64,000 bases of DNA from an uncultured Micavibrio sp. (GTDB lineage Bacteria; Pseudomonadota; Alphaproteobacteria; Micavibrionales; UBA2020): positions 79,565-143,564 of the forward strand of contig CAZKBS010000001.1 of assembly GCA_964551435.1 (NCBI GenBank), given 5' to 3'. Every line of letters begins with the position of its first letter. Position 1 is the first letter of the stretch. Positions 14,470 through 64,000 of this stretch are shown here, one piece after another. The notes beneath the pieces were generated by a model. The model did no database searches and was not told the DNA's origin. It saw only the letters and a program-made list of their open reading frames with translations. The position numbers and the translations under genes are program-made.

Positions 14470-14523
14470 ATTGTCAAGCCCTGCCTTGTTGCCATATTTT
14501 TGATGACGGAATATGGCTTTTCC

Positions 14524-14553
14524 TTGACTCAAGACAAGGCTTTCCCCTATAAA
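14524..14553 (+). promoter_or_regulatory. Candidate sigma-70-type promoter for rpmI-rplT
   Basis: TTGACT, 18 nt, TATAAA, about 100 nt upstream of the rpmI ATG. Confidence 0.4.
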
Positions 14554-14652
14554 AACCCACCAAAAGCAGCCTTTACGGAGGTTGCGGCGGTACGCTGGCT
14601 CGTATTTGGCTGCCTCGCGTGCCGCTGAACGTTTAATTGAAAGGAAAAGAAA

Positions 14653-14937: not shown

Positions 14938-15305
14938 TGGCCCGCGTTAAAGGTGGTACCGCCTCGATCAATCGTCACAAAAAAGTCCTGCGTCTGGCAA
15001 AAGGCTATCGTGGCCGCAGCAGCAAATGCTTCCGCATTGCGCTCGAGCGTCTCGAAAAAGCCCTGCGCTATGCATACCGCGACCGCCGCGCCAAGAAAGC
15101 GGAATTCCGCGGTCTGTGGATCCAGCGTATCAACGCCGGCGCACGCCTGAACGGCCTGACCTACTCCAAACTGATGGGCGGCCTGAAACTAGCCGGCATC
15201 ACGCTGGACCGCAAAGTCCTGTCGGACATCGCCCTGCGCGATCCCGCCGGCTTTGCCAGCATCGCCGAACAGGCGAAAGCTGCTCTGGCTAAAAAAGCCG
15301 CTTAA
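14937..15305 (+). CDS. rplT: 50S ribosomal protein L20
   Basis: [27 protein letters not shown]...[24 protein letters not shown]. Confidence 0.95.
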
Positions 15306-15329
15306 CCGCGCTTTGAGGCAAAGAACAAA

Positions 15330-15366
15330 AACCGCGAATGGCCCCGCCATTCGCGGTTTTCTTTTG
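15330..15366 (+). terminator. Rho-independent terminator after rplT
   Basis: AACCGCGAATGG-cccg-CCATTCGCGGTT followed by ttcttttg. Confidence 0.85.
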
Positions 15367-15435
15367 CGGCCGGAAAATGCTAAACAGGGAACAGCTAAAA
15401 CAACCGGTTTTGCTGCACCCATAATGGAATAGCCC

Positions 15436-45687: not shown

Positions 45688-47775
45688 ATGACGACTGTAT
45701 CCTTAAATTCGGCCCTGAGTGGCCTGAAGGCAGCGCAGCAGGCGCTGAATACCGTCTCGACCAACATCGCCAACGCCAGTACCCCGGGCTACACCCGGAA
45801 AATTTTGCCGCAGCAGACCCTGATTGTCGGCGGCACGGGCGCAGGCGTGACCACGGGCGCGCTGGTGCGCAACGTCGACAAGACCTTGATGAAAAGCCTG
45901 TTCGGGCAAGTCAGCGCGACACAATCGGCGCTGGTCAAAAGCACCTATCTTGGCCGTGTGCAGGATTTCCACGGCGCAACCGAAGCGGAAGCCGCCCTGT
46001 CGAACCGCATCGGCAAGCTGTCGGATGCCTTCTCCGCGCTTTCAAGCGCGCCGGAAAATACCATTTACCTAAACCAGACCGTACAGGCGGCACAAACTCT
46101 GGCGAAATCGTTCAATGATTATACGACGCTGATTACCGACCTACGCCGCCAGACGGAATCGGAAATTTCCGCCTATGTGGGCGAAGTCAACAACAGCCTG
46201 AAGCAGATTGCCGAACTGAACGTGCAAATCGCGCAGCTGACCGCGGGCGGTCAAGCAAGCGCCGATCTGGAAGACCAGCGCGATACCGCCATCCGCAACG
46301 TATCGCAATATATCCAGATTTCGACCTTCACCGACCAGAACAACGTCGTCGTCGTATCGACCAAACAAGGTCAGGCGCTGGCGGATACCAAGGCACAGAA
46401 ACTGGTTTTCAATGCATCGGAAACACTGTCGACGACGTCCTATTACCCGGGCGGCGGGCTGGGCGGGCTTTATATCAACTCGACGGGCGGCATCGAAGTT
46501 GCGCAAAGCTCCATCGGCGGTGCGATTGGCGGTTTGTTCGAACTGCGCGATCAGGTACTGCCGCAATATCAGGCGCAGGTTGACGAACTGGCGCAAAAAA
46601 TGGCGGAGCGTTTCGATAAGCTGGGCCTGCGCCTTTTTACCGATGCCAGCGGCAACGTACCCGCCAGCGTCGCGCCCCCCGCGCCTGTCACCTATAGCGG
46701 CTTTGCCGGTGAAATCCGCGTCAATACCAATATCGTGAACGACCCGACGCTGCTGCGCAAAGGCACCAACGGCGGCGCGGTGCAGGCTGGATCCAACAGT
46801 GTTATAAACCGCATCACCGCCTTCGCCTTCGGCAACGTCGCCGCGCAGAACGCGAACGGTACGGTTGATATCACGGGCAATATTTTCACCGCTGCCAGCC
46901 TGACGCAGACGAACAAACTCTCGGGTAACGTCAACCTCAACAACTACAATCCCGACCTGTCGGATGCAACCAACCTGACGCTGCCTGCCGCGTTCGACCT
47001 GACCATCGGCAGCACGACGCAAACCATCAACATCGGCGCAACCGATACGCCGATTGACCTTGTGAATACCATCAACGCGGCCTTCGGCCCCGGCACAGCG
47101 GCGCTGAACGGCCTTGGCCAGCTGTCGTTCACCACGACCGAGGATATCACCCTGGCCGATAACACTATCGGCGCTGCGGGTATGGCCGATCTGGGCTTCA
47201 CTTTCGGCACGTATCCCGCCAGCAATCCGGCCTTTACCGTCAGCGTGAACGGCCAGCCTGCCGTGACCATCACCATTTTGCCGACGGATACCGAAACGGA
47301 TCTTTTGAACAAGCTCAACGCCGTCCCCGGCCTGACCGCGACACAGGGCACGGGCGGCGTGTTGCAGCTTGTTCCCGACGAAGGCGGCAGCCTGAACCTG
47401 CAAAACACCAGCGGCAATCCGCTGGGCGGACTGGGACTGTCGATTACCAATGTCAACCATACCTCGTTCCGCCAGAACAACCTTGGCCCCGCGGGCAATC
47501 TGTCGACGGGCCTTGCGGCGAACAGCAGCATCGGCGATTACGCCAAGAACCTCGTCAGCCAGCAATCGGCCACCTATAACGCGGCGGAAAGCACCTATAA
47601 CAGTGAACAAAGCTATCTGGAGACCCTCGACAGCCGCAACAGCAGCATCAGCGGCGTTGACCTCGATCAGGAAATTGCGGAGCTGATCCGCGTACAGACC
47701 GCCTATACCGCCGCCGCGCGCATGATTACCGCGACCGAAGAGTTGTTCGACACGCTTTTCGCGGCGATACGCTAA
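45688..47775 (+). CDS. flgK: Flagellar hook-associated protein 1
   Basis: N-terminus LNSALSGLKAAQQALNTVSTNIANASTPGYTRK and C-terminus DQEIAELIRVQTAYTAAARMITATEELFDTL. Confidence 0.92.
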   Translation: MTTVSLNSALSGLKAAQQALNTVSTNIANASTPGYTRKILPQQTLIVGGTGAGVTTGALVRNVDKTLMKSLFGQVSATQSALVKSTYLGRVQDFHGATEAEAALSNRIGKLSDAFSALSSAPENTIYLNQTVQAAQTLAKSFNDYTTLITDLRRQTESEISAYVGEVNNSLKQIAELNVQIAQLTAGGQASADLEDQRDTAIRNVSQYIQISTFTDQNNVVVVSTKQGQALADTKAQKLVFNASETLSTTSYYPGGGLGGLYINSTGGIEVAQSSIGGAIGGLFELRDQVLPQYQAQVDELAQKMAERFDKLGLRLFTDASGNVPASVAPPAPVTYSGFAGEIRVNTNIVNDPTLLRKGTNGGAVQAGSNSVINRITAFAFGNVAAQNANGTVDITGNIFTAASLTQTNKLSGNVNLNNYNPDLSDATNLTLPAAFDLTIGSTTQTINIGATDTPIDLVNTINAAFGPGTAALNGLGQLSFTTTEDITLADNTIGAAGMADLGFTFGTYPASNPAFTVSVNGQPAVTITILPTDTETDLLNKLNAVPGLTATQGTGGVLQLVPDEGGSLNLQNTSGNPLGGLGLSITNVNHTSFRQNNLGPAGNLSTGLAANSSIGDYAKNLVSQQSATYNAAESTYNSEQSYLETLDSRNSSISGVDLDQEIAELIRVQTAYTAAARMITATEELFDTLFAAIR

Positions 47776-47795
47776 TTGAATAAGGAGACCACGTC

Positions 47796-48821
47796 ATGGT
47801 TTACACACCCGGCATTTCCTTCCTCGGCACGACGAATACGCAGATTTCGCGCCTGAAGCAGCTCAATACCACGCTGACCGATTTGCAGCGCCAGCTGACC
47901 ACGCAAAAAAAATACGACAACGTCAGCGGTTTTGGCGCGCAGGCCTACAGCGTGCAGAAGCTGCGCACCGACAAGGCGCAGCTGGATACCTTTCTGACCA
48001 ATATCTCGACGGTCGAAACGCGACTGCAGGTCATGTCAAGCGCTCTGCAGCAGGCATCGGACGCAGGGCGGATGATGACCGACGCTGTGAGCAATTTTTA
48101 CAAATACGGCGCCACCGATATCGAAACCGTCAGCCTTGTCGCCCGCCAGCAGCTGGATTTGATGCGCGACGTCGCCAATCTTGAAATCGACGGGCGGTAT
48201 ATGTTCGCCGGAAGCGCAACGGATGCGGAGCCGTTTTCGAACTACGGCCAGCTTGACCTCAACATGCAAAACCTTGTCACCGACTGGCAAGCGGGCACCA
48301 TCACCACAGCGCAGCTGATTACCGCGGTCAACAACCTGTCGGATACCGATGTCGGATTCAACCCCGCCCTGTCATCGACGGGCAAGGTTACCACGCAAAT
48401 CGATAAAAACCTGAACATTGATTACACCTCCGTCGCCACGGATAACGGCATGAAAGAGCTGATGCGCATGATGGCGCTGGCGGCAAACCTGCGGCCGCTC
48501 GACCTGTCGGCATCCCCGCCGGGCCCGACGCAGGCGGATATGGACCAGCTGGTCAAACATATCGTCGACAGCATCAATACCGCGACCCAGAAAACCGACC
48601 AAGGCAACGGCCAGATCGGCGTGCATCTGGCAACCATCGAATCCGTGCAGAACCAGCACCTGACCGACAGTTCGGTTTTCGACAGGATTTTGATCGAAAA
48701 AGAAAACGCCGATACGACAGAGGTTGTGGCGAAAATACAGTCGCTGCAAACGCAAATCACGTCGTCTTATGAAATCACCAGCCTTGTCAGCCAGCTGTCA
48801 CTGGTGAACTATCTGCGCTAA
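47796..48821 (+). CDS. flgL: Flagellar hook-associated protein 3 (flagellin-like)
   Basis: Follows flgK. Flagellin-type N- and C-terminal helices (C-terminus VAKIQSLQTQITSSYEITSLVSQLSLVNYL). Confidence 0.75.
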   Translation: MVYTPGISFLGTTNTQISRLKQLNTTLTDLQRQLTTQKKYDNVSGFGAQAYSVQKLRTDKAQLDTFLTNISTVETRLQVMSSALQQASDAGRMMTDAVSNFYKYGATDIETVSLVARQQLDLMRDVANLEIDGRYMFAGSATDAEPFSNYGQLDLNMQNLVTDWQAGTITTAQLITAVNNLSDTDVGFNPALSSTGKVTTQIDKNLNIDYTSVATDNGMKELMRMMALAANLRPLDLSASPPGPTQADMDQLVKHIVDSINTATQKTDQGNGQIGVHLATIESVQNQHLTDSSVFDRILIEKENADTTEVVAKIQSLQTQITSSYEITSLVSQLSLVNYLR

Positions 48822-51030: not shown

Positions 51031-52359
51031 TTACGGGGCGCGGTTGGTCGGCAGGTCTTTGCTGTCGAATTTCGGAATATTGATGTCCATATCGGAAGCA
51101 AAAGCCGCCGTTTCCATGAACACCATTTCTTCCATACGTTTGTAGAGTTCGTTCATCTGCTGCAGGCGCACGGCGTTGACCGTCCCCTGTTCACGGATGA
51201 CCTGTTCGGGGCTTTCGATCAGGCGCACGATATATTGCGGGTTATGGAAGCGGTCTTTGCTGACCGCATGCACGATTTCCGCATAGCTGGCGTCGGTCGA
51301 GGCATCCGCCGCAGGCAAACCCGAAGCCGTACGCATTTCCTGCGTATTGACCTTGCTGCCCCCGACACGCTGGCCAATCATCAGCGCCACGGCGTTATAG
51401 ATGGTGTTCTGACGTGCCGTCAGAGCGCGGCGGCGCAGCAGCGTTTGCTGACCCGCAGGCGACTGCACCACAGATTCCGGCACCGGCGGCAGGGATTTGG
51501 GCGCCAGCATGTATTTCATGACAGCATCGACGACCAACCGGTTATCGGGCGATGTCGCATCAATCGTCTGACGGTCACCCCACAGCAAGGCAGGCAAGTC
51601 GACATGACGACCGGCCAAATCACCCGGCGCGCCATCACAACCCTGACCGCCTTTGTCGGGGTCGCAGAAGCGGGTGATATATTCCTGCCAGCGTTCGTTC
51701 TGGTCGGCAGCCGTGCTGCGGCCTGCTGCAGTACCTTCCGCGTTCATCCGGCGGGGCTGGGATTGTTTTGCCAGGGCGCGGGCTGTCGCGCGCGCCATGC
51801 GCGCGGCCTTGCCAACGCCCGAACCGCCGGGGGGCGGACTGCTCGGATTGGCGTTACCCGTGGCGATCGCGTCGAACTGGCAGGCGATTTCGCTCGGCTG
51901 GTAACGGCGGAGCGCTTCAACCTGACGTCTTTGGATATCCTGCATATATTCGTTCTGGTTTTGCGCATCCATCATGGAGCCGTAAACACGGCTCTGGTCG
52001 ATTTGCGAGGCGTGCAACTGGCTGGTCATTTGCTTCAACGCCGGTTCGAAATGTTCACGCCACCACACCGACAGACCTTCGCGGATATTCTGGTCGAACT
52101 CCTCGAGGCGGGTGATGACTTCGTTTTTCGCGGTATTGGTGATTTTATCTTCGATAAAATTTTCTTCCTGTTCGATGAAATCGTTCAGGTCGTCTGCAAT
52201 ATCCTGCGCCATCTGGTTGAACGTCGAGGTCGCGGTGAAAGAGTTTTCGCACTGCGCGCGCGCAATGCCCGGCGCAAACAGCACCGGCAGGGCCAGCGCC
52301 AACGCCAACGCGGGAATAACCCCGACAGCCTTGCGTTTACTGGTTCGTCGGCAATTCAT
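51031..52359 (-). CDS. Secreted Cys-containing protein, paralog 4 of 4 (unassigned family; IcmX-like?)
   Basis: Signal peptide ...PGIARA|QCE. Shares blocks with the three upstream genes: VWWREHFEPALKQMTSQL, RFCDPDKGGQGC, STDASYAEIVHAV. Overlaps the upstream gene by 23 nt. Confidence 0.7.
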   Translation of the reverse strand: MNCRRTSKRKAVGVIPALALALALPVLFAPGIARAQCENSFTATSTFNQMAQDIADDLNDFIEQEENFIEDKITNTAKNEVITRLEEFDQNIREGLSVWWREHFEPALKQMTSQLHASQIDQSRVYGSMMDAQNQNEYMQDIQRRQVEALRRYQPSEIACQFDAIATGNANPSSPPPGGSGVGKAARMARATARALAKQSQPRRMNAEGTAAGRSTAADQNERWQEYITRFCDPDKGGQGCDGAPGDLAGRHVDLPALLWGDRQTIDATSPDNRLVVDAVMKYMLAPKSLPPVPESVVQSPAGQQTLLRRRALTARQNTIYNAVALMIGQRVGGSKVNTQEMRTASGLPAADASTDASYAEIVHAVSKDRFHNPQYIVRLIESPEQVIREQGTVNAVRLQQMNELYKRMEEMVFMETAAFASDMDINIPKFDSKDLPTNRAP

Positions 52360-53641
52360 TGCGACCCCCTCCTCTCAGAGACGTGGCTTTTCTATCCAGA
52401 ATATTACCCGCTTCGATAGCCTGTGCGGTGGCGATCTTTTCGGCCTTTTCAAACATGCGGTACAGCAGCATCAGGTTATAGGCCTGAAGGAATACTTCTT
52501 TTTGCGAAACACTGGTCGCACCATCGGTCAGGCCGACGTAGTATCCCGGATCCCAAAGCTGTTCCATGATCGCCTGGCGGATTTCACGCTCCGACGGATT
52601 GGCGGAGGCGTCGTTGATACCGACACGCTGGCGAATTTCGCGGACCTGATCCGATCCATCGGCATTCGTCGGCGCGCGTTCGGCAACGATAGAGAAACCG
52701 AGCGCGTTCACCGCGTCCATCTGCGCGAGATAGCTGCGGTTATGCTGGCGCTGCTCTTTACCGGCGGCACCGTTGAGAACGTTGTTTTCGATGGTCTCCG
52801 GCGGTTCGAAACCCGTGATGTTGTAAATCAGTTCATTGACGGCAATCGCGATATCGGGGTTGGTCATGTCGAGCGTTTCGCGGCCAAACAGCGTCACGCT
52901 GGGCATCAGGTGTGCGTTCGGGGTTGTCGCCGAGCTGCCGCCGCAGGCCGTGTTGCCGCCGTTGGCCAGATGGTCGCAGAAACGGTTGCGGTATTCTTCG
53001 AAACGGGCACGCACCACACCGCCGGGACCGTTCGCCGCGGGCGTACCGGCATTGTTGTTGGCAAGCTGGCTGGTCGTTTTCGACAGCATGTTCGTGGCCG
53101 CGCGCGTCGTGCCGCTGGCTTTGGTCAGCGGAACGGCAACCGTATCGAAACGGCAGCCTTCATCCGTCGGGCGGAAGTTTTGGCGGGCTTCAAATTCGCG
53201 GCGTTGGAAACCGCGCGCGGTTTCGGTCAGGTTACTGCTGTCAAACAGGCTGGACATCTGGCGGGCCTGATCGGTGACGCCGGCGTTCAGCTGGGTGGTC
53301 ATGGCCTTCAGCGCCTCTTCCCAGTCGCGCCAGAACTGGCGCATGCGCTGGTTGAGGGCGGTTTCCATCGCTTCAAGCGAGGCAATCAGCGCCGCGCTCG
53401 ACGCTGTGGTGGTGGCGGTGTAAAGCGCGCTCAGGGTTGTTTGCATCGCGGTAATCGCCGCCGCCTGCGCCGGAATAACCGTACCTGTCGCAATGCCCAT
53501 GGTAGAACCCGGGGCTTCGCACTGCGCGAAGGCGTCTGTGGGTTGCGCAACCGCGATTGTCGCCGCTATCGCCGCCAAAGCCCATACCGGCAGGGCTTTC
53601 CTGCGCTGTGCCTCTTGGTGGTGCTGGGGTTTCGATTTCAT
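52337..53641 (-). CDS. Secreted Cys-containing protein, paralog 3 of 4
   Basis: Signal peptide ...TDAFA|QCE. Blocks QFWRDWEEALKAMTTQL, RFCDHLANGGNTAC, SANPSEREIRQAI. gaaaggg RBS. Confidence 0.7.
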   Translation of the reverse strand: MKSKPQHHQEAQRRKALPVWALAAIAATIAVAQPTDAFAQCEAPGSTMGIATGTVIPAQAAAITAMQTTLSALYTATTTASSAALIASLEAMETALNQRMRQFWRDWEEALKAMTTQLNAGVTDQARQMSSLFDSSNLTETARGFQRREFEARQNFRPTDEGCRFDTVAVPLTKASGTTRAATNMLSKTTSQLANNNAGTPAANGPGGVVRARFEEYRNRFCDHLANGGNTACGGSSATTPNAHLMPSVTLFGRETLDMTNPDIAIAVNELIYNITGFEPPETIENNVLNGAAGKEQRQHNRSYLAQMDAVNALGFSIVAERAPTNADGSDQVREIRQRVGINDASANPSEREIRQAIMEQLWDPGYYVGLTDGATSVSQKEVFLQAYNLMLLYRMFEKAEKIATAQAIEAGNILDRKATSLRGGGRNELPTNQ

Positions 53642-53655
53642 GAAAACACCCTTTC

Positions 53656-55113
53656 CTATTGGTTCGTATTGCGCGTCAGGGCAAGACTGGGCAGCTGTAC
53701 GTCATCTGCCATCATGCCGACCTGAACCGCCAGCGCCAGCGCCTGACGTTCCAGCAGATCGTGATAGTCGCGCAGCAGCATCAGATAGAAGGTGCTGATC
53801 GCGAGTTTTTCCATTTCCACACCGGCACGTTCCATTTGCAGGCCGTTGGCGAATTTACCGCTGTTGAAACGGTCAACCGTCAGCGCGTTCAGCACTTCGC
53901 GGTAGCTGGGGTTTTCAGAAATGTCAGAGATGGGAATACCCGCTTCCTGACGCAATTCCCGAATCCACTGGCCAAGCTGCGAGCCGGGCATACGCTGGCT
54001 GAAAACATATTGCGGTACGGCGCGGATGGCGTTGTACTTCGCCAGATAGTCGCGGCGTTTGATGATGGTTTCGATACCTGCCGGCCCGCCCATGGCTGCC
54101 TCCGGTATCGGATCGACCGCAGGGCTGCCCACAAGGTTTTCCATGTTTTCACGAATGGCGCGTTCGTAAACCTGACCCGTCGTCATGGGGTTGCCATCGG
54201 GACCGATAACGGTGGTTGCGGTTGCGTCATCGACGTTGATGGTCAGCTTGTTGTAGACGAATTTGGTGATTTCGGTATCGGCGTTATAAAACTCCGGCGG
54301 GGCCGGGGTGGTACCGCAGACGTTGCCGCCACCATTCGCATTCGGGTCGCAGAAGGCCGTTTCATAGGCGCTGGTGCGATATCGCAGATAGGCGCCCTGA
54401 CCGTCCGCACCCTCTTCACCCATGACGTTGGCGCCGGTGTTGCTGGCTTTGCGCTGCCATGCACCACGCGTCGCGCGAGCGAAAGTTTTGGCGCGGCCCG
54501 CACCGCCCGTCAGACCGGCAGGCGGGCACACGTTGTCACGCACGACCCGCGCCGTTTGGGTTTCTGAGCGCATAACGGCGCTGTTGGTCTGGGTTTCATG
54601 CTCCGAGTCCATCGACGCCTGATAGCTTTTGTTCAGGTCGCTGTTGGCCGTGTTCATCTGCACGGTCATGGAGCGCAGGCCCGGGCTCAGGTTGTAGTAC
54701 CACATAGTGGACCACCAATCGATCATCTTCTTCTCGATGTCGTTTACCTTTTCGAGCAGGTTCTGCACCATACCGTCAACGTGCTGTGCCAGCCAGTTTT
54801 CAAGGAATACGGAGGTTGCGACCAGCTGGGTGTAGAAAGCATTGTAGATCGCGTTACGGACAAGGCTGGCAGTACCGGAGACTTCGCAAGGCGTAACGCA
54901 GCCTTTGCAGCAGGGACAAAGACCGCCCGCCACCGTTACCGTAGAGGCCGTTACCTGCGCCTGACAGGCGTTGTTGTAAGAGGTCATCGAGTTATAGCCG
55001 GAGGCAAAGCCAAGCGCTACCACCACAACCATCGCCAGCGACGCGGCATATGCCTTTTTCGGCAAGATCCGTTTTGCAAGGCTGCTCAGTCGTTCCTTGA
55101 TCAATGTCATCAT
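53656..55113 (-). CDS. Membrane-anchored or secreted Cys-rich protein, paralog 2 of 4
   Basis: N-terminal TM, then a Cys cluster (GLCPCCKGCVTPC). Blocks DWWSTMWYYNLSPGLRSMTVQM, AFCDPNANGGGNVC, SENPSYREVLNAL. ATGA overlap with the upstream gene. Confidence 0.7.
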   Translation of the reverse strand: MMTLIKERLSSLAKRILPKKAYAASLAMVVVVALGFASGYNSMTSYNNACQAQVTASTVTVAGGLCPCCKGCVTPCEVSGTASLVRNAIYNAFYTQLVATSVFLENWLAQHVDGMVQNLLEKVNDIEKKMIDWWSTMWYYNLSPGLRSMTVQMNTANSDLNKSYQASMDSEHETQTNSAVMRSETQTARVVRDNVCPPAGLTGGAGRAKTFARATRGAWQRKASNTGANVMGEEGADGQGAYLRYRTSAYETAFCDPNANGGGNVCGTTPAPPEFYNADTEITKFVYNKLTINVDDATATTVIGPDGNPMTTGQVYERAIRENMENLVGSPAVDPIPEAAMGGPAGIETIIKRRDYLAKYNAIRAVPQYVFSQRMPGSQLGQWIRELRQEAGIPISDISENPSYREVLNALTVDRFNSGKFANGLQMERAGVEMEKLAISTFYLMLLRDYHDLLERQALALAVQVGMMADDVQLPSLALTRNTNQ

Positions 55114-56420
55114 TGGTTCACCGGCTTGTCGTTAAGCTTGTCTTCGAATTTGGAATGTTCGCGTACGTTTTTACCGACGCGCGCCGCGAGCAGCAGCGCA
55201 TAGCGGTCAAGAAGGTCAATCTGGTCGGACATCTGCATCGCCTGCAGCGCCTGTTGCATCACGAGCTCGCGGCTGTTGTTTTCCGGCTCGTCCACCTGGT
55301 TGACGGTGTTCTGGCCGCTGCGGTAACGCTCGACCATCAGCGCGTCGAGCACTTCGTTATGGCTGGGGTTATCGCTGGAATTGGTGAGACCGGCGGCGTT
55401 ACGGATCGGCTCGATGAATTCGGCCATATCGCTACCGGGCACCCGGCGCGCGACGATATAATAAACCGCATCGAACAGCACCTGACGGCGCGCCTTGTAC
55501 GATTCGCCCTTGAGGAACATTTCCTGCCCCTCGGCACCGGTCAGCATTTCTTTCGGCACCGGCGCCATCGTGACCGGCTCGACGATGTTGGTCAGCAGAT
55601 CGTCGACAGCTTTGCGTGTCTGCGGGTTGCGCACGTCGATGGTATCTTTTTCAAAAATCTCGCCCGTCACATCAAGGTCGCGGCCAACCATCGGGCCTGC
55701 CGCCGTGCAACCTGCCGCGCCGCCGTTAACAGCGGGATCGCAATAATTGGCGACGTAGTCTTGCCATCTTTCGCCCTGATCGGCGCCCGGGCCCTTAGCG
55801 GCAGCCGTACCCTCACGCGCGCCGGAGCGGTTGAGACGCTCACGCGGCGCCGCGGTGCCATAGGCACGGCGCACGTTGGCCGCACGCGCCATACCGCCTG
55901 CGGTGGTTGCGCCAACGCAAACGGTTTCACTCGGCCGCATCGCGCGGTGTGTTTCGATTTCAGTCCCCATCAGCGCCATGTTGGTGCGGTTGGCGTCCAT
56001 GCTGTCGGTGAATTGACCAATCAGGTTCGACTGATCCGCATCGGCGGTGTTGAGCTGTACGGTCATCGCCTGCATCGCGGGGCGCAGGTTATACAGCCAG
56101 AAAGTATCGAACCAGTCGTTGAGGTTTTTGCCGACTTCGAGAATTTTTGCCGCAACCGCCATATCAAACGCGATCATCGCCTCGGTAAATTTGGCGGTGA
56201 TCATTGTGGTTGCAATGGCGATGCCGGGAATAGTCGTTGTCGTGTTGACAAGGTTGATCGCAACGCCCATACCGCCCGCAGCATACGTGCAAAGACTGCA
56301 CGCGCACTGCGCTTGCGATTTGCAGGATGTCGCCACGTTAAGAGAAAGATAGCCCGCCGCCATAAAGGCGCAGATGCCAACAACGGCGAGGATTTTCTTG
56401 ATCGAGCCGAAAAGAGACAT
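55110..56420 (-). CDS. Membrane-anchored or secreted Cys-rich protein, paralog 1 of 4
   Basis: N-terminal TM, then SCKSQAQCACSLC. Blocks DWFDTFWLYNLRPAMQAMTVQL, NYCDPAVNGGAAGC, SDNPSHNEVLDAL. Start could be ATG 56420 or GTG 56459. Confidence 0.7.
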   Translation of the reverse strand: MSLFGSIKKILAVVGICAFMAAGYLSLNVATSCKSQAQCACSLCTYAAGGMGVAINLVNTTTTIPGIAIATTMITAKFTEAMIAFDMAVAAKILEVGKNLNDWFDTFWLYNLRPAMQAMTVQLNTADADQSNLIGQFTDSMDANRTNMALMGTEIETHRAMRPSETVCVGATTAGGMARAANVRRAYGTAAPRERLNRSGAREGTAAAKGPGADQGERWQDYVANYCDPAVNGGAAGCTAAGPMVGRDLDVTGEIFEKDTIDVRNPQTRKAVDDLLTNIVEPVTMAPVPKEMLTGAEGQEMFLKGESYKARRQVLFDAVYYIVARRVPGSDMAEFIEPIRNAAGLTNSSDNPSHNEVLDALMVERYRSGQNTVNQVDEPENNSRELVMQQALQAMQMSDQIDLLDRYALLLAARVGKNVREHSKFEDKLNDKPVNQ

Positions 56421-56479
56421 ATCCAGAAATACCCCCGTCAGACGCGCCCCGATCGTCACCGGAATCGCTGGTTGACACT

Positions 56480-56540
56480 AAACTTATTCTTTCATTCTAT
56501 CACATTTATCTAAAATGTGATATATTTCAAAAATAAGTTT
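56480..56540. promoter_or_regulatory. Nested inverted repeat in the AT-rich region upstream of the four-paralog operon
   Basis: Outer arms AAACTTATT / AATAAGTTT (56480-88 / 56532-40). Inner arms ATCACATTT-atcta-AAATGTGAT (56499-56521). Confidence 0.5.
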
Positions 56541-56564: not shown

Positions 56565-57890
56565 TTACGGCGTCAGGTCGTAGGATTTGACCACCAGAAC
56601 GCTCGGGCCGTCCTTGCCTTTGTGCAGTTGACCATAGGGCTGGGGGCGGACTTCGGCGAACTGGTCGAGCAGTTTGCCCACGGCTTCATCGTAGGAGCCG
56701 GTGAAGCTGACATCTTTTTTCAGCTTGTAGTCATAATCAATCGACCAGAACAGCTCGACACTTGCAGCATCCGACCAGTTTTTAAGCGTATCGCGCAGGG
56801 TGGCGCCTTTGGCACCGGCCCAGGGCTGCCCCGCCTTTTGCGGAGCAGCGGCCGATTTTTCAGCCGGTGCGGCCAGCGCGGTCGGTGCGGCAACCGTAGC
56901 GGCAGGCGCTGCGGCGGCGGCTTCGGGCGCGGGACTCATTTGTTCCATCGGCGGGGGCACGGCCAGATCAGCCGGTGCCTCGCTCACAGGTGCAGCTTTG
57001 TTGGCCGCCGACGGCGGCAGCGACGTCACTGCAACCGGGCGCGAACCTGCGGTTTCCGGCGGATAAGACATCACAGGCTCTTTTGCTTTCGGTGCGGCCA
57101 TCACGGCAACAGAGTCGCTTTGCGTCCCTGCGGTGCGGCTTTCCGATGCCGGACGGGTGCGGCGAATGGTCACCGGTTCTGCCGTAGCGGCAACGACCGG
57201 AGTTTCGCTAACCGCTGCGGGTGCAGCGGCAGCCGTTTCTGCGGGCGCGCTGGTCAGCGGCGTCGGTGCGGTATCGGCGCTGTCGGACGGCATGACGGAC
57301 ATGCCTTCAGGTGCCGCAGGCATCGGCGCATCAGACGCAGCGAAGCCCACAACAACAACGTTGCCTTGTAGTTGATAGCTGAGGCCCTGCGGCGCGAGCA
57401 TGTCGGTAATCACTTGCTGCCAGGGTTTGCCGCCTTCCCACGAAACCATCACGCCGGGGTTCACGCCGGAGGCGAAAGAAAACTGATGACCCGCAGGAGC
57501 GACTTGCTGAAGCGCAATCACCAGCGGCAGATCGCGGCCGAAGCCAGCGACAACATCCGTCGGTGCCGCAGCGGCAGCAGGCGCGGGCGTTGCTGGCGCG
57601 AAAGGCGCCAGCGCGGGACTGACGGGTTCTGTTTCAACCGGCATGGTCGGTGCAGCGGCGGCAACAGGCGCGGACGCCGGCGCAGCAGCTTTGCCATCCC
57701 AGCCGACAACAGGCTCTAGACCCGACATGTCGCCTTCAACGGGCGCGGGTGCTGCCTGACGCACAGGCGGTTCGATCGGACCGCGCCATTCGAAGCCGGC
57801 ATGTGCCGGAGAACTGAAGCAAAGAAGAGCAACACCCGAAACCATGAGGGCGCGGCCAAAGAACTGCTTGAACGAAGGCGTGTGTGTCAT
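56565..57890 (-). CDS. Secreted protein with an STN-like domain, long Pro/Ala linkers and a C-terminal TcpQ-like domain
   Basis: Signal peptide ...SSPAHA|G. LPLVIALQQVAPAGHQFSFASGVNPGVMVSWEGGKPWQQVITDMLAPQGLSYQLQGNVVVV resembles a secretin/TonB short N-terminal (STN) domain. The C-terminus (LRDTLKNWSDAASVELFWSIDYDYKLKKDVSFTGSYDEAVGKLLDQF) resembles TcpQ/PilL-type domains. Confidence 0.6.
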   Translation of the reverse strand: MTHTPSFKQFFGRALMVSGVALLCFSSPAHAGFEWRGPIEPPVRQAAPAPVEGDMSGLEPVVGWDGKAAAPASAPVAAAAPTMPVETEPVSPALAPFAPATPAPAAAAAPTDVVAGFGRDLPLVIALQQVAPAGHQFSFASGVNPGVMVSWEGGKPWQQVITDMLAPQGLSYQLQGNVVVVGFAASDAPMPAAPEGMSVMPSDSADTAPTPLTSAPAETAAAAPAAVSETPVVAATAEPVTIRRTRPASESRTAGTQSDSVAVMAAPKAKEPVMSYPPETAGSRPVAVTSLPPSAANKAAPVSEAPADLAVPPPMEQMSPAPEAAAAAPAATVAAPTALAAPAEKSAAAPQKAGQPWAGAKGATLRDTLKNWSDAASVELFWSIDYDYKLKKDVSFTGSYDEAVGKLLDQFAEVRPQPYGQLHKGKDGPSVLVVKSYDLTP

Positions 57891-58016: not shown

Positions 58017-58316
58017 TCAGGAGCCGGTATCCTGAAGCTTGCGGCGGCGCGTCCAGATCCAGCCCGGACGCTTGGTGCCGACCAGCCAGACGCGCAGCGA
58101 ACGCAGCGCGGCCGGAAAGGACAAACCCTTGCGCTCGAGCAGATAAAAAATAAACAGCATGCCGACAAGAAGGCAGATCGTCCAGATACGGAAATGCAGC
58201 AGCACCAGCGCGACAAAAAGACCCGCACGCGCATCGAAACTGAAGAACCGTACGGTCTTCATCGTATTACGCCAGTGCCACGAGCGGCCTTCGTCTTCGT
58301 CTTTATCTGCTGCCAT
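58017..58316 (-). CDS. icmT: Type IVB secretion protein IcmT (TraK-like)
   Basis: 99 aa. WHWRNTMKTVRFFSFDARAGLFVALVLLHFRIWTI...LERKGLSF fits the IcmT/TraK pattern (WRDS..(F)F..DA...hydrophobic..H.R.WT). Starts 5 nt after dotB. Confidence 0.75.
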   Translation of the reverse strand: MAADKDEDEGRSWHWRNTMKTVRFFSFDARAGLFVALVLLHFRIWTICLLVGMLFIFYLLERKGLSFPAALRSLRVWLVGTKRPGWIWTRRRKLQDTGS

Positions 58317-58321: not shown

Positions 58322-59515
58322 TTAATTTCCCCCTGCCGTTTCTTCTTCGCCTGCTTCCTGTTTGGTGCCTTGTTGGTAGATCAGGTAGTGGCGCCTTTCG
58401 ATGAGACCGGCTTCGAAAGCGTCTCTGGCCGCTTTTTCCATGGTTTTTCCGTATTTCGGAACCATCTGCATCAGCTCCAGCGGCCATTGGTCGAAGGTCA
58501 GGCTGAGCAAACGCTCGCGGATTTCTTCGGTAAAGGGCATGTATTCGCGCAGCGCCACGCGGCCGCCGCCGATTTTCGGCACCAGCGTTTGCGTGACCAC
58601 CATGCGGATGGTTTCCATCAGGGCGAAAGCACGTTCGGTACGCTCCGACGGCTCGAAGGTCGAGACCATGCGTCGGATTGTCGCCGCCACACCCGTCGTG
58701 TGCACCGTAGCGTAAACGGTGTGACCCGTCTGCCCCGCTTCGATGGCGGCAGAAATGGTTTCGCGGTCGCGGGCCTCACCCACCAGAATGATTTCGGGCT
58801 TGCGGCGCAGTGCGTTACGCACGCCCGCGGCGAAGGACGGCAGGTGGCGCGGAATTTCCGACTGCGCAACCAGCGAGCGTTTCGCCTGAATGGTATCGTA
58901 GGTAAACTCGATCGGCGCCTCGTAGGTCAGCATCTTGCCGCAGCCGTGCAGACTTTCGATGAGCATGCGGTTACCCGCCGCCAGCAGGGTGGATTTGCCC
59001 GAACCCGTCGGCCCCGTGACCAGCACAAGACCCTGACGCGGCTTCCAGTTGGCGATGATTTCCGGCTCGATGTTCAGCTGTTTCATTGTCGGCGGCGCGG
59101 AGGGCAACGTACGCATCGTGACCTGTACGCCGTCGCGGCCATCGGCCAGAATAGCCGTCATGTTCACACGGAAACGCGTGCGCGTGAAACGGTCGGTCAT
59201 GACCTCGTAGGACAAGTCGATGTCGGCGCCGCCCGCGAGAATAGCGAGGGCTTCTGTACCGTAGAGTTTGACGAGAACCGCCGCCATGTCCGCCGCGTCA
59301 AGCGCGCGGTAGGTGGACGGGTAAAGCGTGCCGTAAATCTCGCTGTAAACGGGACGGTTGGACTGGAAGGTGATATCCGACGCGCCCTTCTTCACGCACC
59401 ACAGCAGAAAGGGGTCGATGTGATGCTCCAGAAAACGGTCGGGTTCAGCCGGCCATGTCTCCTTGAGGTCGTCGACGCCTTTCTTGAGGAGACTTACCGG
59501 TCTGCCGGCTTCCAT
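58322..59515 (-). CDS. dotB: Type IVB secretion ATPase DotB (TraJ-like; PilT-superfamily hexameric ATPase)
   Basis: Walker A LVLVTGPTGSGKSTLL. Asp box and His box (GHTVYATVHT). About 397 aa. Sits between dotC and icmT. Confidence 0.85.
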   Translation of the reverse strand: MEAGRPVSLLKKGVDDLKETWPAEPDRFLEHHIDPFLLWCVKKGASDITFQSNRPVYSEIYGTLYPSTYRALDAADMAAVLVKLYGTEALAILAGGADIDLSYEVMTDRFTRTRFRVNMTAILADGRDGVQVTMRTLPSAPPTMKQLNIEPEIIANWKPRQGLVLVTGPTGSGKSTLLAAGNRMLIESLHGCGKMLTYEAPIEFTYDTIQAKRSLVAQSEIPRHLPSFAAGVRNALRRKPEIILVGEARDRETISAAIEAGQTGHTVYATVHTTGVAATIRRMVSTFEPSERTERAFALMETIRMVVTQTLVPKIGGGRVALREYMPFTEEIRERLLSLTFDQWPLELMQMVPKYGKTMEKAARDAFEAGLIERRHYLIYQQGTKQEAGEEETAGGN

Positions 59516-60672
59516 AGATCTGCACCTGTCAGGAATTGCGAGGGGCCGGTGATGCGCAGGGCACGGTCGCCGACACGCATCTCGTTGCCGCCGCCCGTCA
59601 CGCCGCGATCTTCATGCAGCGCATAGGGTTGGGAAATTTTACCTTCGGCCAGCAACAGGCGATAACGCACCATGCCATTATAATCGGCGGTCAGCTGGTT
59701 GAGACCGGTTTCAAAAGCCTCTTCGGCCTGCTGGAAACCTGCATCCCAACCGTCCTTCACCCAGCCGCTCCATTCGCCCTGCTCTTTGGCGTTTTTCGGC
59801 CAGAGGATGCGCGGCGGCGGCGTAATTTCGGATTCATAGTTCATGACCAGATACTGGCGCCAGTTACGCGCCGTCGGCACGATTTTCGCCTGCTGGTTGA
59901 TTTTGAGAACCTGATCGGCAACGGCAGCTTCAACGCCGCCCTCGGTAATCACCATCGCGCCAAGGGACTCTTTCACGATCGGCGGCTCGATCAGCAGACC
60001 CGAAGGCGCTTTCACGAGCAGCGGACGGAAATCGAATACCTTGTCGAGTACACGCTCGTAACCGCCCAGACGCTCGAGGATCTGGTAGTTGCGCTTGGCG
60101 AGACCGCCGCGCGCGCCGTAAGACAGGGCCGCTTCGCGCTGCGCGTCGCGGCGCATGTCGAGGGCGATTTCTTTCGAAATCAGATCATCGACGATTTCGG
60201 GCGTCGTGCCGTGGGTTTTGTGAACCTGCTGGAGGCTGATCAGCTCCGGCGGCGGTTTGACGTTGTCGAGCGGATTGATTTCAGGCTTCTGCGGCTGGAT
60301 GCCGAAGAGATCGATGCTCGATTTCGCTTTATCGGCCAGCTTGCCGGCTTTATAGGCCGGGCTATCGGGATCGAGAATATCGCCCGTGTAGTTGCCGCCA
60401 CCAAAACCTGCATCCGCCTGAATGCCGGGAACGCCCTGCATGGGCGCCTGACCGTAGGGCGTGCTCGGCACTTGCTGCATCGGGAAGGGCGATGCGCCTG
60501 CTTTTGCAGCGGCGGCTTGCTGGTCAGCCAGCGCCTGCGCGAGTGCATCGGGCGTCAGTTGCTGTTGCTGCGCCTGCGCGCCTGCCGAAAAAGCCGTCAG
60601 CAGCGCTGCGGCGCAAAGACCGAGAAACAGGCGGGACAAGGCCAGACGATTAACCACCGGAAACGGGCGCAT
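59494..60672 (-). CDS. dotC: Type IVB secretion outer-membrane-complex protein DotC (TraI-like)
   Basis: Signal peptide. Core AALSYGARGGLAKRNYQILERL...LDKVFDFRPLLV...LIEPPIVKE...ARNWRQYL matches my recollection of the DotC/TraI family. N-terminal Gln/Ala/Pro-rich extension. Confidence 0.75.
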   Translation of the reverse strand: MRPFPVVNRLALSRLFLGLCAAALLTAFSAGAQAQQQQLTPDALAQALADQQAAAAKAGASPFPMQQVPSTPYGQAPMQGVPGIQADAGFGGGNYTGDILDPDSPAYKAGKLADKAKSSIDLFGIQPQKPEINPLDNVKPPPELISLQQVHKTHGTTPEIVDDLISKEIALDMRRDAQREAALSYGARGGLAKRNYQILERLGGYERVLDKVFDFRPLLVKAPSGLLIEPPIVKESLGAMVITEGGVEAAVADQVLKINQQAKIVPTARNWRQYLVMNYESEITPPPRILWPKNAKEQGEWSGWVKDGWDAGFQQAEEAFETGLNQLTADYNGMVRYRLLLAEGKISQPYALHEDRGVTGGGNEMRVGDRALRITGPSQFLTGADLWKPADR

Positions 60673-61138
60673 AGTTCAACTCCACAACACGTTGATCGGG
60701 ATCGACGACGATATTAGCACGCAGTCCGGCCTGCAGGCCAAGATCGCGCAGAACCTCGACAACCGATTTCTGCTTGGCCTGTACGTTGACGACAAGCGGT
60801 GCAGACGGCTGATCGCCGTTGACCTGGAATTCATAACCCGCACGGTCGGCGAGACGTTTGGCGATGGGCTCGATCGGGCCGGCCCAGTCAACCGAAACGG
60901 TACGGCGCAGTTCCTGCGGTGCATACGGCGCGGCTTGCACCGATACGCCGGGATTGCGCGCCTGCTCGACCGATGCGAGGGTTTGCAGTGCGGAGGAAGC
61001 TTTGTCGACAGCCGCGGCAAGACGCAGGCTGACCGGGTCGGGAGTAGCGACCATCTGATGATCGATCTTCGCCGCCGGTGCGCAGGCCGAAAGAGCGAGC
61101 AGAGCCGCGGCACCGATAAAAGAAATTTTTTTGTTCAT
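60650..61138 (-). CDS. dotD: Type IVB secretion lipoprotein DotD (TraH-like)
   Basis: MNKKISFIGAAALLALSAC lipobox. 162 aa. C-terminal N0-like domain (VSVDWAGPIEPIAKRLADRAGYEFQVNGDQPSAPLVVNV...VVELNY). Confidence 0.8.
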   Translation of the reverse strand: MNKKISFIGAAALLALSACAPAAKIDHQMVATPDPVSLRLAAAVDKASSALQTLASVEQARNPGVSVQAAPYAPQELRRTVSVDWAGPIEPIAKRLADRAGYEFQVNGDQPSAPLVVNVQAKQKSVVEVLRDLGLQAGLRANIVVDPDQRVVELNYAPVSGG

Positions 61139-61204
61139 GAGAGTTGTTCCATCACTGCCCGAAAAAAGGGAAACACATTTGCGTGGACTGATTTTAACCA
61201 TTTT

Positions 61205-61232
61205 CAGTCGCAATGCAAACGGCATGCGACTG
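61205..61232. other. Stable hairpin in the transglycosylase-dotD intergenic region
   Basis: CAGTCGCAATGC-aaacg-GCATGCGACTG (one bulged base). Flanked by T/A runs. Confidence 0.4.
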
Positions 61233-62973: not shown

Positions 62974-63420
62974 TTAGAGCCTAAATCCGCCCGGCCCCTT
63001 GCCCTTTCTGACGGGGGCGGCGGGAACGTCGAGCGCATTGCCCGTTTCGGCCACAGGTACGCTCGCGGCGGGATCGGCACTGCGGTCAGGCATGGCGCTC
63101 AGCAGCATGCGGGTGATATCGGCGCGCGCGGTAGCATTTCGGGTATCTTTGTTCAAATCGAAAACCGTGCGGTTACGATGATCCTTGATGAACAGGTCGG
63201 GGCCGTAGCGCAGCAAGAAACGCACGCGGGCGGTCGACTCTTTCCAGACCGCACGCATCAGAACCGTCTGCCCGTCGGCGTTACGCGCATTGATATCGGC
63301 GCCTTTTTTAAAGCATAGCGTCAAACGCTCATCGAAATTCGATTCATCGAGCGCGGTGAACATTTCTTCGTTCACGATGCGCTGTTGTTCGCGGCTCAGG
63401 GCTGTGTTTTTGTCGGTCAT
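62974..63420 (-). CDS. Ankyrin-repeat protein
   Basis: KKGADINARNADGQTVLMRAVWKESTARVRFLLRYGPDLFIKDHRNRTVFD. Tail PVRKGKGPGGFRL. ATGA overlap with the upstream gene. Confidence 0.8.
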   Translation of the reverse strand: MTDKNTALSREQQRIVNEEMFTALDESNFDERLTLCFKKGADINARNADGQTVLMRAVWKESTARVRFLLRYGPDLFIKDHRNRTVFDLNKDTRNATARADITRMLLSAMPDRSADPAASVPVAETGNALDVPAAPVRKGKGPGGFRL

Positions 63421-64000
63421 AGCGTGAAGCCCCCGCCGCCGCGCGGTTTTTGCGGACGGCGCGCGATGACCGCAGCGGGCTTCATCACCTCGATATCCGC
63501 CTGCGCGGATGCTGCGGGCGCGGCGGACGCTTTGCCGGTTGCGGTGTTTTGTGGCTGCTGGTCGGGCATTTTCGCCATCACGGCGTTGATGATGTTTTGG
63601 CGCACATTGCTGTCACGGTCGATGCGGCTGGCCACCGTAATCGCGATATCGCCTTTTTTATCGGCGACCATGGTATCGGCGCCGCGCGACAGCCAGTAAT
63701 TCACCATGCGTTCGGAATAGGTTTTGATGCCGATCATCAGCACCGTATCGCCCGCATCGTTTTTCGCGTCGATACGCGCACCAGCGCTGAGCAGAAAATC
63801 GGTCATGTCGGCGGAAAAGCCACCGCTGTTCTGGCCGACCGTCGCCGCCAGATGCAAAACCGGCCCGAAAACGTTTTGGGATGTGCTGCTGGCCATGCTC
63901 TGGCGCACGGAATAAAAAATGCCGTGGGTCATGCAATTCGGATCCGCCCCCTTTTGCACATACAGCTTCGCCTGCACAACGTTGCGGTTGCGCACGGCTT
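63417..64000 (-). CDS. Ankyrin-repeat protein, 5'-partial (runs off the window end)
   Basis: The frame stays open to nt 64000; the 'M' in the ORF track is an internal GTG. GPVLHLAATVG...LLSAGARIDAKNDAGDTVLMIGI. Tail ARRPQKPRGGGGFTL. Confidence 0.8.
   Translation of the reverse strand, partial: AVRNRNVVQAKLYVQKGADPNCMTHGIFYSVRQSMASSTSQNVFGPVLHLAATVGQNSGGFSADMTDFLLSAGARIDAKNDAGDTVLMIGIKTYSERMVNYWLSRGADTMVADKKGDIAITVASRIDRDSNVRQNIINAVMAKMPDQQPQNTATGKASAAPAASAQADIEVMKPAAVIARRPQKPRGGGGFTL

Follow-up and report, generated by a model that had tools for sequence, protein, structure and literature searches.

A PilL-family protein with two predicted N0-type domains encoded directly downstream of icmT in the type IVB secretion locus of Micavibrio-like bacteria

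In the type IVb thin pili of the IncI/R64 type, the PilN secretin works with PilL, a partner of the TcpQ/BfpG type. The IncI1 PilL (R64, ColIb-P9) is a lipoprotein with the lipobox LLSGC, in which an STN-like domain (D1, residues 123-187) and a C-terminal TcpQ domain (D2, residues 260-338) are separated by a Ser/Thr/Pro-rich linker of approximately 70 aa. BfpG of the EPEC bundle-forming pilus and TcpQ of the Vibrio cholerae TCP are single-domain periplasmic secretin partners of approximately 115-150 aa, the genes of which adjoin that of the secretin. In the case of BfpG (PDB 9u5s), which is not a lipoprotein, strands β3 and β5 pair with the secretin BfpB (PMC12531336). On MPF_I plasmids, the pilL gene stands between secretion and pilus genes in the order dotD-dotC-dotB-icmT-pilL-pilN-pilO-pilP-pilQ-pilR-pilS.

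[quoted passage not shown] Annotations of public contigs include this gene as well, and a homologue search collected its relatives in 121 clusters, with E values down to 1e-273. Like IncI1 PilL, the product consists of a signal sequence, a linker, an STN-like D1, a second linker and a C-terminal TcpQ domain, in that order; in the target, a GFEW motif is placed between the signal peptide and the first linker. In an AlphaFold2 model based on a 38-sequence alignment, two domains (residues 113-185 and 355-437) are confident, and the remainder has a pLDDT below 50. An earlier note on this DNA had described an exported 441-aa protein that combines STN-like and TcpQ-like domains of secretin-partner origin with large low-complexity Pro/Ala spacers. 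The description proved sound: the two confident domains are predicted to be of the N0 type, TcpQ is matched above the Pfam threshold, and the linkers, at residues 32-112 and 186-354, together amount to 250 residues, i.e., 57% of the protein, with a Pro+Ala content of 48% over residues 32-112 and 46% in linker 2. The pair of domains is not, however, an unprecedented combination, since the same layout occurs in IncI1 PilL and the PilL family.

Table 1. Features of the target gene, its product and the neighbouring genes in the window
Feature	Position	Strand	Remarks and basis
Target PilL-family CDS	56565..57890	-	441 aa + stop codon; ORF list, homologue clusters
Signal peptide, residues 1-31	57798..57890	-	ends AHA/G, signal peptidase I type, without lipobox; sequence reading
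Mature N-terminal motif GFEWRGP, residues 32-38	57777..57797	-	(near-)invariant; family alignment
Linker 1, residues 39-112	57555..57776	-	Pro/Ala-rich, predicted disordered; composition, pLDDT <50
D1, residues 113-185, STN/N0-like	57336..57554	-	AlphaFold2, Pfam STN sub-threshold, PilQ N0 match
Linker 2, residues 186-354	56829..57335	-	Pro/Ala-rich, predicted disordered; composition, pLDDT <50
Basic motif PVTIRRTRP in linker 2, residues 239-247	57150..57176	-	conserved alignment block, regex
D2, residues 355-441, TcpQ/BfpG-like N0 domain	56568..56828	-	Pfam TcpQ; BfpG by profile and Foldseek
icmT/traK, directly upstream of target	58017..58316	-	NCBIfam IcmT_TraK, 85.8 bits
dotB, dotC, dotD	58322..61225	-	Pfam and NCBIfam matches
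Four IcmX/TraW-family paralogues, directly downstream of target	51031..56459	-	profile chaining and fold
Palindrome TATCACATTT-N5-AAATGTGATA	56498..56522	.	gap between target and first paralogue; conserved

The C-terminal domain matches Pfam TcpQ (PF10671) with 46.6 bits over residues 357-433, against a gathering threshold of 27, and its confident fold (residues 355-437) has a pLDDT of about 90. The best match of the target model in the PDB is BfpG (9u5s_R; Foldseek E 2e-5, TM 0.77, rmsd 1.6 over 79 columns), to which D2 is also related by profile (E 2e-11, 30% identity). The D2 motifs WSIDYDY and RPQPYGQLH align with BfpG strands β3 and β5, and the most conserved motifs of the domain are thus the equivalents of the secretin-binding strands. 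Their conservation suggests that D2 has a binding partner, the identity of which is not given by the strands themselves.

The proposed STN assignment of D1 did not fare as well as that of TcpQ, in that the Pfam STN profile (PF07660) reaches only 22 bits, below its gathering threshold of 28.4, and the match (residues 153-182) spans just profile positions 21-50 of 52. A precomputed PF07660 match is present in approximately 10 among the 120 target homologues listed, and the N0 domain of PilQ aligns with target profile positions 152-185 at an E value of 0.18. By sequence alone the STN call therefore remains below threshold; the predicted secondary-structure order (β-α-β-β-α-β-β, pLDDT about 95 in the AlphaFold2 model) fits the N0/STN fold. 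Following BfpG, the Foldseek matches in the PDB comprise secretin N0 domains (LspD, PilQ), the N0 domain of Xanthomonas VirB7 and the signalling (STN) domain of FpvA, those to secretin N0 and FpvA STN being matches of the two-domain model as a whole, by either domain. Stand-alone homologues of D1 occur in plasmid T4BSS clusters, with E values of 1e-19 to 2e-22. Internal duplication was considered as the source of the two domains and rejected: hhalign comparison of D1 with D2 gave a probability of 0.3%, i.e., no relation, and the two domains are thus not a recent duplication.

The relationship to the plasmid pilus proteins can be followed stepwise. The target matches PilL of a Xanthomonas MPF_I plasmid (tblastn E 1e-9 for D1 and 3e-7 for D2; jackhmmer E 2e-43), and the latter matches IncI1 PilL across both domains (E 1e-13). 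The D1 and D2 profiles of the target also match IncI1 PilL, with E values of 2e-7 and 2e-13, respectively, and in identical order. On these sequence matches, the target is homologous to IncI1/R64 PilL via the Xanthomonas plasmid PilL. The two proteins nevertheless differ in several respects. In place of the lipobox of IncI1 PilL, the target has a Sec-type signal end, SSPAHA/GFEW, and pilN-linked relatives from the same order are likewise non-lipidated. As a member of the PilL family, the target is exported by Sec to the periplasm and is non-lipidated; the lack of a lipid anchor is shared with the homologous BfpG. Its second linker is Pro/Ala-rich and longer (approximately 170 aa) than the Ser/Thr/Pro-rich linker of IncI1 PilL, and the GFEW N-terminal and PVTIRRxKP motifs further set the target apart. 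Whereas the gene heads a pilN-pilO-pilP-pilQ-pilR-pilS operon in basal relatives of the target, as in IncI1, the window contains neither pilM, pilN nor other pil genes, and the target is followed instead by four IcmX/TraW paralogues. Compared to BfpG and TcpQ, the target is enlarged by a second N0-like domain and by long linkers, and no secretin gene adjoins it.

Across the target family, residues A31, G32 and F33 never vary, E34, W35 and G37 hardly do, and the A-x-A/GFEW junction is kept throughout. The GFEW motif is common to the pilN-linked, IcmX-linked and D1-only forms, and is carried by the plasmid D1-only proteins as D-F-x-h-x-P. A regular expression for PVTIRRTRP matches just the clade of the window (16 loci), with no match in pilN-linked or other forms. 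In the AlphaFold2 monomer model of the target, the conserved linear motifs were not seen docked. Mean pairwise identity within the window's clade is 58% for D1, 63% for D2 and 57% for DotC, compared to 32% for linker 2; as judged from these values, D1 and D2 are still under purifying selection.

The association with the T4BSS, which the earlier note had put forward for a co-occurrence check, is not one of chance. The family member lies directly downstream of icmT in 68 of the 78 genome loci; 50 of these 68 continue with IcmX-like genes and lack a pilN within 10 kb. In related clades, DotI, DotH and DotG are encoded in the same cluster as the PilL-family gene. Homologues in pilus operons unrelated to the T4BSS had also been envisaged: homologues indeed stand first in pilus operons, but T4BSS genes adjoin the majority of these operons. 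The basal relatives share the gene order of the MPF_I plasmids, and the Xanthomonas plasmid shows traH-I-J-K, three other genes, and then pilL-pilN-pilO-pilP-pilQ-pilR-pilS-pilT-pilV-pilM. On a DotB tree, the pilN-type loci are paraphyletic. The target owes its position after icmT to descent from MPF_I systems; at the locus of the window's clade, no pilus genes are left, and the four IcmX/TraW paralogues stand in their stead. That the adjacency to icmT is ancestral and stems from an MPF_I traH-I-J-K block followed by a thin-pilus operon is an observation absent from the earlier note.

Other members of the family depart from this arrangement. In a sister clade, the T4BSS cluster is kept and D2 is lost; D2 is therefore not generally required by this T4BSS. 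Proteins with D1 only head an operon with a TraW-like gene and dotA on pilus-less T4BSS plasmids (Roseomonas, Gluconobacter and Methylosinus). In four loci, a D1+D2 gene is surrounded by housekeeping genes, and genes of a T4BSS or a pilus are absent nearby.

The four paralogues downstream of the target are 24-31% identical among themselves. Their profile matches plasmid proteins adjoining DotA/TraY (E 3e-22 to 3e-24), and the Xanthomonas plasmid match leads in turn to NCBIfam conj_TraW (E 5e-10). The sole meaningful PDB match of an AlphaFold2 paralogue model is the DotA-IcmX protochannel 9ngy; a sequence search of the PDB with paralogue 1 found nothing. Three paralogues of approximately 550 aa are encoded upstream of the pilN-type loci, and their hhalign match to IcmX (77% probability) covers 40 columns only. 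Of the 20 loci of the window's clade, 14 carry the palindrome TATCACATTT-N5-AAATGTGATA in the gap that separates the target from the first paralogue. On the other side of the target, the dotC product of the window has an N-terminal extension of approximately 100 aa; DotC measures 381-436 aa in the window's clade and 268-311 aa elsewhere, with one exception of 358 aa. This extension was considered as a docking site for D2 and discarded, because D1+D2 forms beside convergent IcmX-like genes have a short DotC, and the extension thus follows the clade and not the presence of D2.

The target has lost its pilus neighbours, yet the gene is conserved in a chromosomal T4BSS cluster, and so it may have been re-used by the T4BSS. 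We regard it as an even call whether the target is an N0-domain scaffold that has exchanged the secretin for the envelope complex of the T4BSS. In the manner of BfpG on BfpB, each N0-type domain would then use edge-strand pairing to bind exposed β-strands of an envelope partner, and the flexible linkers would let D1 and D2 reach different heights of the periplasm, where the pair might act jointly as a hoop or tether at the periphery. In place of the PilN secretin, the target would engage DotC/DotD/DotH or the DotA-IcmX channel in the envelope complex of the T4BSS. A more far-reaching version, which we offer only tentatively, is that, in the whole Micavibrio-like order, PilL was taken over to serve as a structural part of a chromosomal T4BSS passed on by vertical descent. 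The N0 domains, possibly together with the GFEW and PVTIRR peptides, would in this case add a further ring or tether in the periplasm, seated either on DotC/DotD/DotH or on a DotA-IcmX channel that has branched out into four IcmX paralogues. The minimal form of an unrecognised T4BSS accessory family would then be seen in the D1-only proteins that pilus-less T4BSS plasmids encode.

The target could otherwise be an ordinary thin-pilus PilL which serves, in trans, a pilN-pilO-pilP-pilQ-pilR-pilS operon elsewhere in the genome, its place beside icmT being leftover gene order; we consider this unlikely. The strong conservation of D2, which extends to the counterparts of the secretin-binding BfpG strands, agrees with such a role, and the sister clade that retains its T4BSS without D2 would fit a need for D2 in the pilus only. 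Moreover, the R64 pil genes are needed for transfer in liquid and not on solid media (PMC4288162), and one complete chromosome carries pilL-pilN-pilO away from any dot gene. Against this stands the tight coupling of the two genes: pilN has a PilL-like gene immediately before it at each of the 11 pilN loci in a first set and at 9 of 10 further loci with upstream sequence (20 of 21 overall), and a distant pilN without a pilL of its own would therefore be unusual. None of pilN, pilO, pilQ and pilR is found within the 64-kb window, which covers part of a 544-kb contig, and no PilN match was obtained on long contigs of the window's clade, in searches that were insensitive. Comparison of the PilL and PilN match lists for shared contigs gave one known pilN-linked contig in common, other known positives being also absent among the best 120 listed. 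Patterns from a narrower PilN alignment, specific to one PilN subfamily and hence weak (the first alignment was too divergent for patterns), matched 11 loci on metagenome contigs and none on contigs of the window's clade. Should a pilN operon exist elsewhere in these genomes, the target would be an ordinary PilL and the finding routine.

STN domains link partners in TonB-dependent transducers, and the target might accordingly belong to neither machine and act as a general periplasmic N0/STN tether or signalling adaptor, e.g., between an outer-membrane component and an inner-membrane or cell-wall partner. The four orphan D1+D2 genes, the long Pro/Ala linkers, which resemble periplasm-spanning tethers, and the modelled likeness to the signalling domain of FpvA and to domains of FecR-type anti-sigma factors, counted here for D1, would all suit this role. 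It is nonetheless improbable given the prevalence of icmT directly upstream, and the annotated neighbours include no recognisable gene for a sigma factor, an anti-sigma factor or a TonB-dependent receptor. The loss of the pilus genes from the locus, and of D2 in one clade, might alternatively mark the target as a functionless, decaying relic of the pilus operon, but full-length ORFs are intact in more than 30 species-level genomes, D1 and D2 match DotC in conservation whereas the linkers drift, and the N-terminal motif and signal cleavage site are invariant, so that we consider decay very improbable indeed.

The order of Micavibrio-like bacteria includes epibiotic predators, and their conserved chromosomal T4BSS may act in cell-to-cell contact or predation. 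Our literature search found no paper tying TcpQ to type IVB secretion; for Micavibrio together with T4BSS, just Legionella and Coxiella papers were ranked, and the Micavibrio papers searched mention type IV secretion in passing only. The target thus provides one handle on this T4BSS. The D1-only proteins encoded with a TraW/IcmX-like gene and dotA are, in addition, candidates for a new accessory family in alphaproteobacterial T4BSSs.

In comparison with known secretion components, the target is not a canonical part of the Dot/Icm system, as the earlier note had surmised: an NCBIfam scan of the target returned no family at E values up to 0.1, and DotD is just a weak fold match. The NCBIfam models presumably include the ICE PilL model TIGR03748. 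Among the T4SS components quoted for the GI-type conjugation clusters of ICEHin1056 and ICEHpa1 (PMC9437646), Tfc1/PilL is listed and PilN is not. Tfc1, the function of which is putative, would thus offer a precedent for PilL-like proteins that belong to a T4SS, although it is of the MPF_G type and the target of the MPF_I/T4BSS type, the two being likened by gene description. DotD of the T4BSS and the Xanthomonas VirB7 XAC2622 of the T4ASS both place an N0-type fold, as in the target domains, in the outer-membrane core of a T4SS. The fold matches of the target to VirB7 (2l4w, 3ov5, 6gyb) and DotD (7mud) are weak (E 0.02 to 1, with DotD at about 0.8-1), and the window has a DotD gene of its own three genes upstream of the target. 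Unlike DotD and VirB7, which are lipoproteins with one N0 domain, the target is non-lipidated and has two such domains as predicted; the likeness is one of mechanism by analogy, not of family membership. If PilL has indeed switched from a secretin to the T4BSS envelope, the target would be a concrete example of the exchange of N0-domain modules between outer-membrane machines, already hinted at by DotD and Xanthomonas VirB7.

The earlier note had described the protein encoded directly after icmT as a secreted combination of an STN-like and a TcpQ-like domain separated by large Pro/Ala-rich spacers, and this architecture was borne out. The Pfam TcpQ family (PF10671) matches residues 357-433 with 46.6 bits against a gathering score of 27, and an AlphaFold2 model, built on a 38-sequence alignment, displays two confident domains, D1 (residues 113-185, pLDDT about 95) and D2 (residues 355-437, pLDDT about 90), with pLDDT below 50 elsewhere. 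The two linkers together comprise 250 residues (57% of the protein), with a Pro+Ala content of 46-48%. An STN character of D1 is suggested by its fold and by a PF07660 score under the threshold (residues 153-182, 22 bits, threshold 28.4), but not by any curated match; NCBIfam models gave no match to the protein. The top Foldseek match in the PDB is BfpG (9u5s_R; E 2e-5, TM 0.77, rmsd 1.6), also recovered on D2 by a profile search of PDB sequences (E 2e-11), followed by the N0 domains of secretins (LspD, PilQ) and of Xanthomonas VirB7 and the FpvA signalling domain; DotD is a weak fold match.

The same-strand gene order, from upstream to downstream, is DsbG-like, SLT lytic transglycosylase, DotD, DotC, DotB, IcmT, the D1+D2 protein and four tandem paralogues. 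The latter (434-485 aa) share 24-31% identity and lack a Pfam match. Their profile matches a 376-aa Roseomonas protein (E 3e-24) and a 378-aa Xanthomonas plasmid protein (E 3e-22), the genes of which both adjoin DotA/TraY, and the Xanthomonas protein in turn matches NCBIfam conj_TraW (E 5e-10). When the AlphaFold2 model of paralogue 1 was compared with the PDB, the Legionella DotA-IcmX protochannel (9ngy; E 5e-3, probability 1.00) was the sole meaningful match. [quoted passage not shown] The four-fold expansion is conserved throughout the window's clade (clade B). Within the 64-kb window, neither further T4BSS core genes beyond this block nor type IV pilus genes were found. The cluster is flanked by housekeeping and flagellar genes, and the block is therefore chromosomal.

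A perfect inverted repeat (TATCACATTT-TAGAT-AAATGTGATA), overlapped by promoter-like hexamers, occupies the AT-rich gap between the D1+D2 gene and the first IcmX paralogue. Its core, TCACATTT-N5-AAATGTGA, is kept in 14 of 20 clade loci, whose proteins share as little as about 43% identity, and it probably serves the IcmX operon as an operator or promoter. DotC carries a Gln/Ala/Pro-rich N-terminal extension of about 100 aa in the window's clade only, where its length is 381-436 aa versus 268-311 aa elsewhere (with one exception, 358 aa). Ankyrin-repeat proteins adjoin the DsbG-SLT-dotD block on its upstream side, in the same position in most clade-B loci, and may be T4BSS substrates.

Coordinates of the features in the window and in loci from other genomes (L handles, own coordinates)
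Feature	Sequence	Coordinates	Strand
D1+D2 gene, 441 aa (ORF list)	window	56565-57890	-
IcmX-like paralogue 1 (ORF list)	window	55110-56459	-
IcmX-like paralogue 2 (ORF list)	window	53656-55113	-
IcmX-like paralogue 3 (ORF list)	window	52337-53641	-
IcmX-like paralogue 4 (ORF list)	window	51031-52359	-
Inverted repeat	window	56498-56522	
dotC	window	59494-60672	
dotC N-terminal extension	window	roughly 60340-60672	
Ankyrin-repeat proteins	window	62974-63995 and upstream	-
flgK, flgL	window	45688-48821	
flgK, flgL	L039	11006-14634	
flgK, flgL	L053	10251-13916	
Class C family gene	L053	9353-10219	
Stand-alone D1 gene	L084 (Roseomonas plasmid)	11800-12207	
Stand-alone D1 gene	L089 (Gluconobacter plasmid)	9001-9219	
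Stand-alone D1 gene	L090 (Methylosinus plasmid)	8773-9210	
pilL-pilN-pilO cluster	L087 (CP064970.1)	8958-15465	
Tandem paralogues upstream of pilN-type locus	L003	1-3715	
Tandem paralogues upstream of pilN-type locus	L088	1-2211	
Orphan D1+D2 genes	L028, L042, L047, L049	each around 9900-11250	

A homologue search with the protein returned 121 clusters, nearly all unnamed, the few named ones being alphaproteobacterial MAGs. One distant homologue (30% identity) is found in the order dotD-dotC-dotB-icmT-[homologue]-pilN secretin-pilO-pilP-pilQ ATPase-pilR-pilins, and the genes that follow it are an R64-type thin-pilus operon. When one genome per species was scanned, 79 loci emerged, each in a MAG that carries the label Micavibrio (placed under Bdellovibrionales by NCBI), Alphaproteobacteria, Rhodospirillaceae or Bdellovibrionales; 78 hold a family member, with icmT directly upstream in 68. 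In class A loci, pilN, pilO, pilP, pilQ and pilR come after the family gene. Class B, the window's clade, has the D1+D2 protein and then four same-strand IcmX-like genes. The class C protein (Micavibrio proper) stops after D1, without the TcpQ domain, and class D encodes a D1+D2 protein; in both, the IcmX-like genes are convergent, flgL and flgK lie between them and the family gene, and DotI, DotH and DotG come next. A few loci contain neither pilus nor IcmX-like genes after the family gene. In the class C locus L053 and about 19 others, the loss of TcpQ leaves the signal, GFEW motif and D1 in place. Across the order, flgK and flgL keep their synteny with the T4BSS block, a sign that Micavibrio-like bacteria have long inherited a chromosomal T4BSS vertically. 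In the Micavibrio literature searched, type IV secretion is mentioned in passing only.

Each of the 11 pilN loci in the first set has the PilL-like gene directly before pilN, as do nine of ten further ones having upstream sequence; L087, described below, is one of these. A neighbour-joining tree of DotB, with the plasmid as root, has pilN-type loci at the base of several clades. This indicates that the pilus operon was present ancestrally and disappeared from the locus on at least three occasions, the pilL-like gene remaining next to icmT. Upstream of pilN-type loci (L003, L088) is a tandem set of two or three paralogues, each some 510-550 aa long and without a Pfam match; by hhalign they resemble the IcmX paralogues weakly and in part (probability 77% across 40 columns that surround a conserved Cys). 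On a complete 2.06-Mb alphaproteobacterial chromosome (L087), a pilL-pilN-pilO cluster distant from all dot genes, followed by two more genes and an IS1 transposase, may be a truncated pilus operon. In four loci, orphan D1+D2 genes have housekeeping genes as neighbours; neither T4BSS nor pilus genes occur within about 10 kb.

T4BSS clusters are also plasmid-borne, in Roseomonas, Gluconobacter and Methylosinus. The regions read contain no pilus genes, and each cluster encodes a small exported protein (72-145 aa) in which D1 (E 1e-19 to 2e-22 with the D1 profile) is joined by a Pro-rich linker to a D-F-x-h-x-P motif. The Gluconobacter gene is annotated at only 72 aa, and its start may be miscalled. 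The D1 gene leads an operon of two small genes, a TraW/IcmX-like gene and a large gene, followed by dotA/traY. The pairing of a D1 gene with an IcmX-like gene mirrors the window, and D1 is thus seen in a pilus-free T4BSS setting.

Mean pairwise identity among 20 clade-B genomes is 58% for D1, 63% for D2 and 32% for linker 2, compared with 57% for DotC, 70% for DotD, 71% for IcmT and 81% for DotB; constraint on D1 and D2 equals that on a T4BSS protein of the outer-membrane core. The BfpB-BfpG structure shows BfpG strands beta3 (Asn63 to Asn67) and beta5 (Ile97 to Asn101) paired with strands in the N-terminal region of the secretin, which yields a 17:17 hoop (PMC12531336). Their equivalents by profile alignment, WSIDYDYKLK and RPQPYGQLH, are the most conserved D2 motifs, and edge-strand pairing is therefore very probably still the way in which D2 binds some partner.

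The protein would best be read as a periplasmic N0-domain scaffold or tether, now acting on the T4BSS envelope complex, a proposal with about an even chance of being correct. The listing of Tfc1/PilL among components of GI-type T4SS clusters (PMC9437646) provides a precedent. Against a T4BSS role, class C has lost D2 yet keeps its T4BSS cluster, orphan D1+D2 copies exist, and R64 needs its pil genes to mate in liquid, though not on solid media (PMC4288162). The main rival places a pilN operon in another part of the genome, served in trans by the protein as an ordinary PilL. It has a smaller but appreciable probability, since both searches that found no PilN in clade-B genomes were of low sensitivity. 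A relic of the lost pilus operon is unlikely, because D1 and D2 are conserved. The interpretation in the earlier note is upheld in part, docking onto DotC/DotD/DotH being hypothetical. The protein belongs to the PilL family and is found here in a genomic setting that is new, and in a functional one that may be.

The family assignment rests on known conjugative systems. A Xanthomonas campestris MPF_I plasmid encodes traH-I-J-K, three other genes and a "TcpQ domain-containing protein", then pilN, pilO2, pilP, pilQ, pilR, pilS, pilT, pilV and pilM. That TcpQ-domain protein matches the window's protein in D1 and D2, as well as the IncI1 "type IV pilus biogenesis lipoprotein PilL" across both domains (E 1e-13). 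IncI1 PilL is built alike, with a signal, a linker, D1 (123-187), a second linker and D2 (260-338), and because of this shared layout and the Xanthomonas link the window's protein is assigned to the PilL family, of which low-complexity spacers are a trait. Unlike IncI1 PilL, it has no lipobox, its signal ending in AHA before a Gly, and its linker 2 is much longer; it is also set apart by the invariant GFEW motif at the mature N-terminus and by a PVTIRRxKP motif in linker 2, matched by regex in loci of the window's clade only.
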